In this document: positions 18,016 through 40,782 of the stretch, piece by piece
How positions within the stretch are numbered: the first letter of the stretch is position 1
Layout of the letters: each line of letters opens with the position of its first letter
DNA from: Eledone cirrhosa
Lineage: Eukaryota
Direction of reading: 5' to 3'
NCBI GenBank assembly: GCA_964016885.1
Contig: OZ024740.1
Coordinates: 222,208,001 to 222,272,000, forward strand
DNA length: 64,000 nt
Program-made: the position numbers and the translations under genes
Notes under the pieces: model-generated
Databases searched by the model: none
Seen by the model: only the letters and a program-made list of their open reading frames with translations
Told to the model about the DNA's origin: nothing

Positions 18016-18336
18016 CCCTCCCACCGCTTGTGACTGCTTGACTAGAAGACAGGCGAGAATATATACTTGTCTCGTCTGTGTAAATGAGGAGATTAATCTC
18101 ATTTGCATATGAAGCTGCATAAGTTGGCTCAACTTATAATAAAAAAGAAATAGGATTTCGCTTCAAGCATAGCTTTATACAATATGTATAAATATTTCGT
18201 ATCTCTTTTTTATTATAAGTTGAGCCAACTTATGCAGCTTCATATGCAAATGTGATTAATCACCTCATTTACGCAGACGAGAAAAGTATATATTCTCGCC
18301 TGTCTTCTAGTCCAGCAGTCGCAAGCGGTGGGAGGG

Positions 18337-18380
18337 ACCGTACTGACGAAGGCCAGTTAAGCCTGAAATGCATAGACGGT
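18337..18380 (+). ncRNA. Minimal type I hammerhead ribozyme (family C, inverted copy)
   Basis: accgta-CTGACGA-aggc cagttaa gcct-GAAA-tgca-TA-gacggt, with one stem I mismatch. Confidence 0.88.
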
Positions 18381-19880
18381 TGTCCCCCTTGCTTCTGCTG
18401 GACATCACCAGAGGGCGTTAGTCCCCCGTTGTTTGCATAGCTACGGCTTCCTAAAACCGTATTTCTTTGGAGATACGAAATATTTATACACACATACACA
18501 CACACACACACACACACATATATATATATATATATATATATATATATATATATATATATATATATATATATAGGAAATAGTCAGGAACGCGGCGGCTGAG
18601 CTACGGCCGTTTCGACAGCTACGTTTGGACTAACCCAGTAGTGTTAGGACGGGAGTAATCTAGCTGAACAAGGGGTACAGTCCATATATCGGCATGTAAT
18701 GAAAACATAGCAGTAGTATCATATCAAACAATTCTAAAAATTGTTTTTTTTTTCTGTCACGGGAAGTGGTCAAAGGTTTGTATACATTGTTAAATTCCTT
18801 CATAGCGGAGGGTAGGGGTGGGGTGGCTGACCTAAGGGAAGGGAGTAAGGTGACAATCTGACCTGTGGATTCCGGGCCGGTCATGCATTAAGAGAGAATT
18901 CTTTACAGCTATCTCTAAAGAGGGTAAGAACCTATGATAAACAAGGAATATTGTAGAGTTAAAAATGGGAATGCCAGGTCTAACGTTGGCTAAAGAGCAA
19001 AACAAATATAATTTAATACAACATTCCTAATTAATACAGTATAGTTATTAGTTACTCTAATGCACTAGAACAGCATCTCAAAGTAGTAATATATGAATAT
19101 TATCATCCGTAATGATGCCCCCCCCCCCCCCCCCCAAAAAAAAAATCTGGCTATGTGTTCGGCCGGTGCTATGTATATTTAACAAGACTGAAAATACTTG
19201 GGTTAATCTAGGTTAATATAATAGTATAGATAAGGAAGGATCCGCCTAAGTGTAATTAGAGTGTGTAACTAATGAAGAAAAATGAAAAAAGGAAAATAAG
19301 AGAAGAAAAAAATAAAAATTTCTACTTCTACCTAAGTATGGTTGGATTTTCCTCTATCTTAGTTTGTAAATAGGAAAAAAGATACAGCCGAGGTCTAACC
19401 ACCCGGGTCGTGGGGGTGGGGGTTTGAAAGTAAGATATGTCATACGCATTCTGTGTCTACATGAGGTAACAAGTTCAGCCAATCCACACACCGCTATGAA
19501 GGAATTTAACTATGTATACAAAATCTTTGACCACTCCCGGTGACGGAAAATAAAAACAACAATTTTTAGAATTGTTTGATATGATATTACTGTTATCTTT
19601 TCATTACATGCCCATATATGGACTGTACCCCTTGATAAGTTCAGCTAGATTACTACCGTCCTAACACTACTGGGTTAGTTCAGATCTAGCTGTCGAAACG
19701 GCCGGGGCTCAACCGTCGGGGTTCTGACTCCTTTCCTATTACGCACTCTACTACCCTAAGTATTTTTATTATGCTTTTATATTTAATTTCATTTGTACCG
19801 TTTCCTCTCACCCCCTTTTTTCTATATGTCTCTCCACCACTTCCCTACACACCCTTGGAACTCTCTTCCCAAACACTTTT

Positions 19881-19911
19881 CACCTGAAGAAGGGCTTATG
19901 CCCGAAACGTC
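19881..19911 (+). ncRNA. Minimal PLE-type hammerhead ribozyme (family D)
   Basis: CTGAAGA-a-gggc ttat gccc-GAAAC-GTC with a palindromic ACGT stem III. AATAAA and a TA tract follow. Stem I is weak. Confidence 0.8.
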
Positions 19912-20829
19912 GTTCCCCACCACCACCCCTCTCTCAAGAGCGTGAAACTAATAAACCTTTGTTCGTACTGCCTCTCTGTTTTGTTCCCGTTCAATTTTTT
20001 ACTATATATATATATCATGGATCAACTAAGCACTCTTGCTATATTAACACATTTTGATCTGCTTATCTTCAAGAACTATGCCTGTAAGTAACATTATTTT
20101 TTCTTTTACATTGCCTTATTATGTTTCACATTACGCCCGTTCTTTTTCTTTTTTCTTTTCACTCCATAAACCTTGTTTGTAAATAACATTATTCTTTCTG
20201 CACCATTTCCTTATCATGTTCAACACCACCATTTTACACCAATACATATTATTATCATTTGATAATGCATAAAAATGCTGAAACCGGTAATAGACAATTA
20301 TTAAATATATAAATAAATAAATAAATGCCATTGTTAATTAATAAATAAATCAACTAATACCTTAACACCTCACACAAAGTAAAATATTTCGTTTTAATCA
20401 TTTTCTAACCCAGAAAAATGAGAGAAAAAATAAATATATTTTTCTTCCTAACAATCGTCTTTTTCTCCTGTTTTCATATATATATATATATATATATATA
20501 TATATATATATATATATATATATATATATACATTTATTCGTAGGATAATGGGAAAATCTCAACGCAAGGAAGCTGTTAAAACAGCAAAAAATCATGAATG
20601 ACGGTGTCAGGTAAAATTTACCTCAAAGGATAGAAATCAGCGTTGGTTCGCATTGCGAGCATTTTGCTGTTTTAACAGCTGCCGTGCGTTGATTTTTTTC
20701 CATTATCCTACGAATTATAATACACTCGCATTTCAAACTCGATATTCGAGATAACTTTGCGTATGTATATATATATATACATACGCAAAGTTATATATAT
20801 ATATATATATATATATATATATATATATA

Positions 20830-38054: not shown

Positions 38055-38145
38055 GTCCTCCACCTACCCCCCACTCTCCTGAGCGTGAATTTAATAAACA
38101 ATTGTCGTACTGCCTCTCTGTTCTGTCCCTGTTCAATTTTTCATT

Positions 38146-39180
38146 ATATATATATATATATATATATATATATATATATATATATATACATACATATACA
38201 CGCATACATACACACATACATATATATATATATATATATACATATATATATATACATATACACGCATACATACACACATACATATATATATATATACACA
38301 CATATATACACTTATATATATATATATACATACACACATATATATATATATATATATATATACATACACACACATACACATATTTATATATATATAAATA
38401 TATATATATATACATATATATATATATATATATAAATATATATATATAAATATATATATATATAAATATATATATATATATATATATATAATATATATAT
38501 ATATATATATATATATATATATATATATATATATATATATATAAATATATATATATATATAAATATATATATATATATAAATATATATATATATATAAAT
38601 ATATATATATATATAAATATATATATATATATATAAATATATATATATATATATAAATATATATATATATATAAATATATATATATATATAAATATATAT
38701 ATATAAATATATATATATATATATAAATATATATATATATATATAAATATATATATATATATATAAATATATATATATATATAAATATATATATATATAT
38801 AAATATATATATATATATATATATATATAAATATATATATATATATATATATATATATATAAATATATATATATATATATATATATATATATATATATAT
38901 ATATAAATATATATATATATATATATATATATAAATATATATATATATATATATATATATATATATAAATATATATATATAAATATATATATATTATATA
39001 TATATATATATATATATATAATATATATATAAATATATATATATATATATATATATATAATATATATATATAATATATATATATATATATATATATATAT
39101 ATATATATATATATATATATATATATATATATATATATATATATACATACACATATATAAACACATATACACACACATAT
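38146..39180. repeat. ~1-kb (TA)n-derived microsatellite
   Basis: Directly visible. Confidence 0.95.
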
Positions 39181-39229
39181 ACGTTGTTGGGTTTGAAGGA
39201 TTTAGAGGGGCTAAAAGGGGGAAGTCGTT

Positions 39230-40165
39230 TTTATCCATCGAATATTAACATTGGCTTAACATTTTCGAAAGTTGCAAAGTTTTTGTGCATGCAGTTCGGG
39301 CAGTGTTCAGAGAGTTTGTTCAGCAGCGGGCCCCAGGCGAATAAAATTTCGTAGCTCTCTGAGATACAAAGGTCGCAGCCCTTGTGTCCTTCGTTGTAAG
39401 AGCACGCTTATGGAGTATTTTCCATCTAAGCGTGAATGGGGTGGATTTCCTTTTGAGGTCCCAAACACAGGAGGCGAGTGTTGTCTGCTTTTATTTGTCC
39501 GGTCTTCTGAAGGAGTGGGTATGGGCATACCAACGGGTCTTAAAATTATTGGAAGTCATGCCGATGTAAGTCGGTTTGTTGTTGAATTCATCGGTGCCTG
39601 AGATGACATCGCATTTGTATACGATATCATTTGCCAGGCATTTGTTTTCAAGTGGGCAGGCTTCCTTATTTAGGCAATTACAGAAGGCCCCAGTCCGGGG
39701 ATTGGGTTCGGAGGTGGTTGGCTTATCTAATTTTTTAGAATTGTCACTGGCTATATTCCTAGCTAGGTTAGGTGGTGGAGTAGGAGAGTCTTATTGTGTT
39801 CTTATTAAAGATGGTGTAGTACCTATGCTGTATGGGGAAGTGTGTGTTCAGCAAAGTGAAGAAAATCCTAGCTATAGGTGTAGATACCTCTCTATTAATG
39901 GGAGGGTTTTACCAGCTAATCTGCCTATGCCTATTCCTCCTCTGCAGTCTTACGGTGGTTTCTAGGTAGGTTATATTTTCTTTAAATCCGCTGCGGGCGA
40001 GGGCGTCATTGTAGTAGGAGGCAGAGGCGTTAAATATATCTTCATTGGCAGAGAGGACAGACATTCTAATAAAGACGCTGTTATCAGTGATGTTTTTGGG
40101 GTGGTTAGAATTAACATTAATATATCTAAGGGACTCGTTAGTTTTGTGGTACGGGTAATAGAGGG
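39230..40165 (-). pseudogene. Penelope-like element remnant: RT C-terminal region plus GIY-YIG endonuclease
   Basis: YYPYHKTNESLRYINVNSNHPKNI..IRMSVLSANEDIF..YNDALARSGF; CNCLNKEACPLENKCLANDIVYKC..TYIGMTSNNFKTRWYAHTHSF; VWDLK..LRWKIL; CDLCISE. It contains stops and frameshifts. Confidence 0.92.
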
Positions 40166-40782
40166 TGTATATGTGTGTATGTGTGTGTATATATGTATAT
40201 ATATGTGTGTATATATATATATATATATATATATATATATATAAAAACAAAAAACGAAACGAAATTAAATTTCGTTTCGTTTGTAACTCACTTTTGTATG
40301 ACTGACGCTTAAACAATTAAGTTACAAATGTACATCCGCATATGTATACTGAAATACTAGTATGCATATGAATACACACACGTATACATATGTAGGTTTC
40401 CTCAAAAACCAGTATGACTCTAAAATCCGGTTTGTCTGTGTGTTTACATACAGAATAGCTGGATACTCACAGTAAAGTAACCAGTGAAAAACTTGGTACA
40501 TCTACATATGTATACGTGTGTGTATTCATATGCATACTAGTATTTCAGTATACATATGCGGATGTACATTTTTAACTTAATTGTTTAAGCGTCAGTCATA
40601 CAAAAGTGAGTTACAAACGAAACGAAATTTAATTTCGTTTCGTTATTTGTTTTTATCGTCTCCGTTGAACCGGTACGTACTCACACTCTATGCAAATTAG
40701 TCTGCCCACTACTAATTTTCATAGAAAAAGCATATAACGATATGTGCTTTTACGATTCTCCAGAAAGGCCGGTAGATAGGTA

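Follow-up and report, generated by a model that had tools for sequence, protein, structure and literature searches.

Hammerhead repeats of Eledone cirrhosa carry an upstream cassette resembling host small nuclear RNA promoters

The locus and its hammerhead families

Our subject is a 64,000-nucleotide (nt) stretch of the Eledone cirrhosa genome (contig OZ024740.1, positions 222,208,001 to 222,272,000; hereafter the window), where hammerhead ribozyme repeats of three families, H, C and I, carry a cassette of promoter-like motifs. The window has a GC content of 32.5% and the genome a size of 3.0 Gb. An earlier note on this DNA had placed the octamer ATGCAAAT at 18244 (family I), 35460 (family H) and 40690 (family C), and these are indeed its starts. 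Equally sound were the TATA-like boxes (TATATA at 18287, TATATA at 35502 and CATATA at 40731; 43, 42 and 41 nt from the octamer), the hammerhead cores (CTGANGA at 18343, 35548 and 40790; offsets 99, 88 and 100 nt) and the outer stems at 35531 and 40756. The GAAA(A)G said to precede each box needs a small correction in family C, where it is GAAAAAG, with five As. Four further cassettes of the same families start at 35029 on the plus strand and at 18108, 36454 and 36939 on the minus strand. The window holds 12 octamers, a number that by itself is mildly over chance (6.2 ± 2.6 expected; 4 of 100 shuffles). Seven have a core downstream, and all 7 have a box at 41-43 nt; the remaining 5 have neither.

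The plus-strand family I cassette consists of the octamer and 3 nt more (18244-18254; GTG here, GAG in most family copies), a hexamer similar to the proximal sequence element (PSE), and the TATA box (18287-18294; predicted +1 at 18317). The hexamer, ATCACC (18259-18264), lies 28 nt before TATA and is a weak match to the host RNA polymerase II (Pol II) PSE. A type I hammerhead with an extended helix I follows (18310-18403; core 18343-18368, predicted cleavage after 18374), and a run of six Ts (T6; 18206-18211) lies 38 nt upstream of the octamer. The inverted copy (17855-18108, minus strand; octamer 18108-18101, core 18009-17984) is part of a head-to-head insertion spanning 17855-18490.

In family H, all on the plus strand, the octamer extends to the 11-mer ATGCAAATTAG (35460-35470). 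This is followed by the PSE-like hexamer CTAAGC (35475-35480; CTCAGC in most copies), 27 nt before TATA, the TATA box (35502-35509; predicted +1 at 35532) and a type I hammerhead with extended helix I, which carries mismatches in the window copy (35517-35602; core 35548-35572, predicted cleavage after 35578). A monomer of 431 nt (35148-35578) lies between two predicted cleavage sites and contains the putative promoter and a T5 run (35425-35429). Upstream are another cassette and core, 5'-truncated at the octamer (35029-35147). The octamers at 36454 and 36939 belong to two tandem cassettes of subfamily H2 (36342-36939, minus strand), with a period of 485.

Family C has the same 11-mer (40690-40700, plus strand). 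Its hexamer, CCCACT at octamer+15 (40705-40710), is a poor match to the host Pol II PSE. The CATATA box (40731-40738) predicts +1 at 40761-40762, and the type I hammerhead, again with extended helix I, spans 40755-40850 (core 40790-40814, predicted cleavage after 40820, at GUU). A T5 run (40650-40654) lies 40 nt upstream of the octamer. The whole insertion (40241-41053) joins an inverted piece (40241-40395) to a forward piece (40396-41053). Only family C was matched by Rfam (HH9, 38.6 bits, E 5.6e-9, under the gathering score of 52); the window copies of H and I, which carry helix-I mismatches, gave no hammerhead match. Rfam microRNA matches were rejected as hairpin and microsatellite noise.

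The H, I and C clusters share the hammerhead fold: the core, a helix I of 7 pairs, a helix II of 4-5 pairs and a short helix III. Helices I and II pair with different letters in each family. The short helix III reads as a palindrome, either ACTAGT or ATGCAT, as it does in amphibian hammerheads, which cleave as dimers (PMC7229834). Core to core, the units measure 429-485 nt in family H (one of 659), 464-484 nt in family C and 324 nt in family I, for which one tandem was found. All contain the cassette, and the putative promoter lies within monomers of 446-485 nt in H, 464-484 nt in C and 324 nt in I. Family C forms arrays of about 30 units; family I occurs mostly as inverted pairs and solos. 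Reading frames over the units are low-complexity or chance only, and the units have neither protein-coding capacity nor long terminal repeats (LTRs). In each family, insertions end at either of two fixed 3' points, are truncated to varying extents at the 5' side and have inverted heads. Such a pattern is described for Penelope-like elements (PMC8557442). By this anatomy, in which hammerhead units bear insertion marks of the Penelope type, H, C and I are non-LTR retrozyme families.

Genome-wide, 30,100 sites have an octamer, a box 41-43 nt from it and a core start, compared with 7 reversed-pattern controls. Note that all such counts are of repeat amplification copies, not independent events. 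Asking only that a core follow the octamer after 75-105 nt yields 31,649 matches, as opposed to 17 when the pattern is reversed. A box at 45-49 nt occurs at 323 sites versus 8 controls, with a slightly different TATA pattern, and at 28-39 nt at 353 versus 11, those listed being mostly scattered deletion copies of the same families. All three families are present in high copy number, with first-look candidates numbering 3416 for H, 841 for C and 2055 for I (40 scored each). The cassette is not universal to hammerheads, an idea we rejected since the octamer is absent from 16 other clusters that have unselected members. Among unselected, stem-checked hammerheads (1.28 Mb examined), the exact octamer is present in 50 of 74 sites of H, C, I and a further family, D, but in 0 of 50 from other clusters. 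The cassette is thus specific, among hammerheads, to the H/C/I/D-type clade. The earlier note had called family C not obviously alignable to H or I. This holds for I, which has no BLAST match to H or C. It does not hold for H, which BLAST aligns to C both in the body (E 4e-12) and across the promoter (E 3.5e-7); by alignment, H and C are homologous. Promoter intermediates are seen between families I, N, M, H and D, and all cassette families probably share ancestry.

Broken Penelope-like fragments, with reverse transcriptase/GIY-YIG sequence, lie in the window at 39234-40163 (minus), 8835-9359 (plus) and 41775-41987 (plus); their motifs suggest the Neptune type. Between the first of these and the family C insertion lies only a TA microsatellite. 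Neptune-like open reading frames (ORFs) are abundant in the genome (43,259 candidates, 150 scored). The window also has hammerhead-like cores without the cassette, at 19884 (plus), 38027 (plus), 30601 (plus), 29073-29096 (minus), 33058-33080 (minus) and 43852-43910, which are probably Penelope-like 3' ends. More long inverted repeats, centred on microsatellites or head-to-head insertions, occupy 42719-42908, 7243-7594, 45844-46491 and 22314-23606.

Likeness to host promoters

For comparison, we assembled host promoters of the small nuclear RNA (snRNA) class, with the polymerase of each gene presumed from established knowledge. One set, for RNA polymerase III (Pol III), has 9 distinct promoters (three U6, U6atac, MRP, two tRNA-Sec, 7SK and RNase P), leaving aside pseudogene copies that lack a promoter and 5 members of the U6 array in which an insertion lies upstream of TATA. 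Seven of these type 3 promoters (U6, U6atac, MRP and tRNA-Sec) have ATGCAAAT, or a one-letter variant, followed by (T/G)AG at -76 to -79, with the consensus ATG(C/G)(A/T)AAT(T/G)AG. In the same 7, TATA is at -30/-31 and the octamer-TATA spacing is 46-48. As a by-product, this defines a compact layout for the host U6 promoter. The 7SK and RNase P promoters have no octamer; instead, ATCAGT lies 33-34 nt before TATA. Type 3 promoters thus appear to come in two kinds in this host. The 7SK/RNase P hexamer is that of U1/U2 genes, shifted (RNase P at G000:C24:12936134, 7SK at G000:C2:194684573). The U6 array is tandem, with a period of about 1.8 kb (G000:C19:31780605-31840331); in some units a repeat is inserted immediately upstream of TATA, displacing the octamer.

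The Pol II set comprises 18 non-redundant promoters (U1, U2, U4, U5 and U12). None of the 18 has the octamer at -76 to -79, and one U4 promoter has ATGGAAAT at -109. An ATCAGT-like PSE hexamer is found at -56 to -59 in 17 of 18; AATTAA around -89 and a TATA-like tract around -30 occur in the majority. Vertebrate Pol II snRNA promoters, unlike these, are generally TATA-less.

We liken the element cassette to the snRNA promoters of this genome because its 11-mer, PSE-like hexamer and TATA box match host layouts. Moreover, the elements fall into two spacing classes. In the short class (H, C, I, D, M and N), the hexamer is 26-28 nt before TATA, which is the host Pol II spacing (PSE 26-29 nt before the TATA-like box). 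The long class consists of family E and about a dozen decayed singletons, most representatives being single decayed copies; octamer-TATA is 46-48 and the hexamer is about 32 nt before TATA. This is the host Pol III geometry (PSE 32-34 nt before TATA, octamer-TATA 46-48), found in family E and other decayed families and not in H, C and I (octamer-TATA 41-43, PSE-TATA 26-28). A T4-T8 run is present at +70 to +83 in 10 of 13 long-class copies, and in the family E majority, and in 0 of 10 short-class copies. In D (14.4 bits), N (12.6) and M (7.6), a position weight matrix (PWM) of host Pol II PSEs scores highest 28 nt before TATA, with shuffle p<=0.004 and scores within the host leave-one-out range of 1-18.5. 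The best position is also 27-28 in H1 and I. A PWM of the Pol III post-octamer sequence was discarded; it did not separate elements from other octamer sites, and its null set was contaminated by decayed copies.

Across the 6 short-spaced families, identity is 0.76 for the NAG after the octamer, 0.61 for the hexamer, 0.86 for TATA and 1.00 at -1, compared with 0.29-0.30 in flanks. At octamer+15 the hexamer also exceeds its flanks in the long class (0.49; flanks 0.29-0.37 over both classes). When we searched on the host octamer and TATA spacing, with no ribozyme required, a core lay downstream at 5 of 27 sites (strict) or 10 of 27 (1 mismatch); the random baseline was 49/5000 and 206/5000, or 1% and 4%. 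A further 20 hand-picked sites yielded cores in 2 (strict) and 7 (1 mismatch). In family D, tandem octamer-like repeats lie upstream, the PSE matches the U2 type almost perfectly, and a motif weakly resembling a 3' box is present at about +171. Family G (G000:C1:54824622, minus) has an octamer-TATA spacing of 46, a long helix II and an outer helix right after the TATA box.

The likeness to host snRNA-class promoters, and motif retention amid diverged flanks, support the earlier proposal that each unit would carry its own promoter. The interpretation we favour, at a probability of roughly 0.55, is that this is an internal snRNA-class promoter, likely served by Pol II in H, C and I, which would feed read-through multimers. 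The motifs might otherwise be the relic of an ancestral promoter, or be kept for RNA structure or reverse transcription, with transcription arriving passively from neighbouring host promoters. Probable shared ancestry, the H-C alignment and the promoter intermediates fit such a relic, as do hairpins predicted around TATA and the lack of a start-site signal (below). However, motif blocks retain 0.6-1.0 identity while flanks drop to 0.3, spacer-deleted cassettes are about 1% of copies (353 versus 30,100) and each of the two spacings matches a host class. We regard a relic as improbable.

The earlier note had compared the cassette with histone H2B and immunoglobulin promoters, which have an octamer and TATA box, are not known to contain a PSE, and drive mRNAs. 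An mRNA-type Pol II promoter, under tissue-specific POU control and starting a short RNA at the outer stem, would explain the octamer and TATA at fixed spacing. It would also explain a pyrimidine-purine step at TATA+30, present in 16 of 28 representatives (not all independent) against 1-10 at other offsets from 20 to 40, a step that equally supports the start site expected on our favoured reading. Nevertheless, the comparison picks the wrong class, since the 11-mer and PSE-like hexamer match host snRNA-class promoters. Nor is a short RNA from the outer stem the propagating form. That stem is the ribozyme's own extended helix I, which begins upstream of the predicted +1 (TATA+15 in H, TATA+24 in C), and 118 of 168 inserted family I pieces reach upstream of +1 (those with a normal 3' end, counted from listed insertions). 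We consider an H2B-like promoter very improbable. Hence, of the earlier interpretation as a whole, the unit-borne promoter survives and the promoter class and short RNA do not. Any POU role would be of the snRNA-enhancer kind (Oct-1/SNAPc).

Transcript extent and choice of polymerase

Inserted pieces offer an indirect proxy for the extent of the copied RNA. In the same set of 168, 63 reach across the T6 run, and 14 continue beyond the cleavage site upstream. Hence, the template would be a read-through multimer, or a circle, containing the promoter. A Pol III terminator would hinder either. A Pol II 3' box was not found downstream in H, C or I (p 0.19-0.62), which fits read-through, and is weak in D (1 of 4 copies, p 0.017). 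A broad excess of family I 5' ends over 54-91 persists and may reflect stalling in helix I. An apparent cluster of these ends near +1, in 30 loci, was not upheld in 116 loci (solos 3/25, p 0.09). Two other approaches were set aside. Minimum free energy folding, intended to show where the helix begins, suffered in most families from distortion by long-range pairs. Four of six listed runs (contigs of unrecorded kind), aligned over one C monomer, gave full cover and an end-to-start joint in all; tandem DNA explains this equally, and it is not used as evidence.

Several observations weigh against our reading. Some concern the motifs themselves. Families beyond H, C and I were found using patterns that contain the octamer, which makes their octamer identity a product of the search. 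In the PSE-matrix analysis several TATA offsets were set by eye, and the Pol II PSE match is weak in H1 (0.9 bits, p 0.04), H2 (p 0.044) and I (p 0.14-0.29), and poor in C (p 0.21). The elements lack, at the corresponding position, the host Pol II motif AATTAA (about -89, some 32 nt upstream of the PSE); they instead carry AAT(T/G/C)AG 10 nt upstream of the hexamer. Others concern transcripts and mobility. Family I insertions have no pile-up of 5' ends at +1 (7 in 69-77 versus 4.8 expected, p 0.21, 116 loci). Family E, with Pol III spacing, also has copies spanning T6; hence, spanning a T-run does not alone assign a polymerase. Finally, the cassette was not found in the 3' untranslated regions of 30 Neptune-like loci, and units have no consistent adjacency to Penelope-like ORFs (516 sequences).

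The remaining contrary points bear directly on a rival in which every family has a compact Pol III promoter of the U6 type (type 3). Transcripts would then mostly stop at a T-run just before the next promoter, with rare read-through giving the propagating monomers. At this place the octamer is otherwise found only in host Pol III promoters, the 11-mer being specific to them (7/9 versus 0/18), and the +1 geometry is like that of U6. In 7 of 8 representatives of the short clade (from H, C, I, M, N and old I), a T4-T6 run precedes the octamer by 35-45 nt, a placement resembling Pol III terminators ending each unit. In H1 and I, the 200-340 nt that follow +1 are free of T4 runs, the first T5 in C is at +275, and the long-spaced families share the host Pol III spacing of 46-48. 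Conversely, octamer-TATA is 41-43 in H, C and I but 46-48 in all 7 host genes. The scarcity of T-runs in the unit body is not significant (p 0.34-0.98). Family I pieces span T6 as described above, and each family C unit contains two T5 runs as well as two T4 runs. On balance, a Pol III promoter throughout is unlikely.

According to the reading we prefer, the octamer would likely be bound by a POU factor and the hexamer by SNAPc, which together recruit TBP. RNA would start about 30 nt past TATA and read through the next unit. Successive paired hammerheads would then release monomers of 324-485 nt containing the promoter. Monomers would circularize, and a Penelope-like reverse transcriptase may copy them back. 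With the promoter inside the monomer, every new insertion would regain it. The long-spaced class appears older than the short class, judging from decay and low count and not from a tree. More doubtful is a scenario in which a retrozyme lineage captured a U6-type Pol III promoter. One branch would have cut the PSE-TATA spacer by about 5 nt to U1/U2 geometry, switched to Pol II, escaped T-run termination and expanded to about 30,000 copies, and the Pol III-spaced families (about 300 sites) would have decayed. If true, the polymerase switch would be a natural experiment recorded in one genome.

Comparison with known systems

Two satellites offer precedents. The promoter elements of newt satellite 2 are reportedly an octamer and a PSE, and the schistosome satellite promoter is said to be internal, of the A/B-box type. 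Schistosome satellite hammerheads are alike in being repeats with their own Pol III promoter (as cited in PMC2220036); unlike theirs, the elements here lie upstream of +1. Like the cassette, host U6, U6atac, RNase MRP and tRNA-Sec promoters, and vertebrate H1, confine the octamer, the PSE and the TATA box to some 80-100 bp around +1. The compact H1 promoter reportedly recruits Pol II as well as Pol III (PMC11340601). Unlike host U6-type promoters, H, C and I have an octamer-TATA spacing 4-7 nt shorter, inside a mobile unit.

Metazoan non-LTR retrozymes are likewise tandem type I hammerhead units without an ORF, ranging from monomers to long arrays, beside Penelope-like elements (PMC7229834; bioRxiv 10.64898/2026.07.22.740005). 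The units here differ in measuring 324-485 nt. Animal retrozymes are described as intensely transcribed (PMC7229834), yet a term search of the same two texts found no promoter analysis; the newt and schistosome satellites are the only precedents we found. A literature search, with most subscription papers and supplements outside it, turned up neither the cassette nor the host's promoter arrangement, and no account of two retrozyme spacing classes. The significance is that about 30,000 hammerhead repeats likely each drive their own transcription, from a cassette that shares its octamer motif with host U6 promoters.

The closest parallel is newt satellite 2, for which an snRNA-type promoter in a hammerhead satellite, reported to drive Pol II, is already in print (Coats, Zhang, Epstein 1994, as cited in PMC2220036). 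That satellite is a tandem hammerhead repeat of about 330 nt with the promoter inside it (PMC2220036). It also has a short palindromic helix III and is active as a dimer, as amphibian hammerheads with such a helix cleave as dimers (PMC7229834). [quoted passage not shown]

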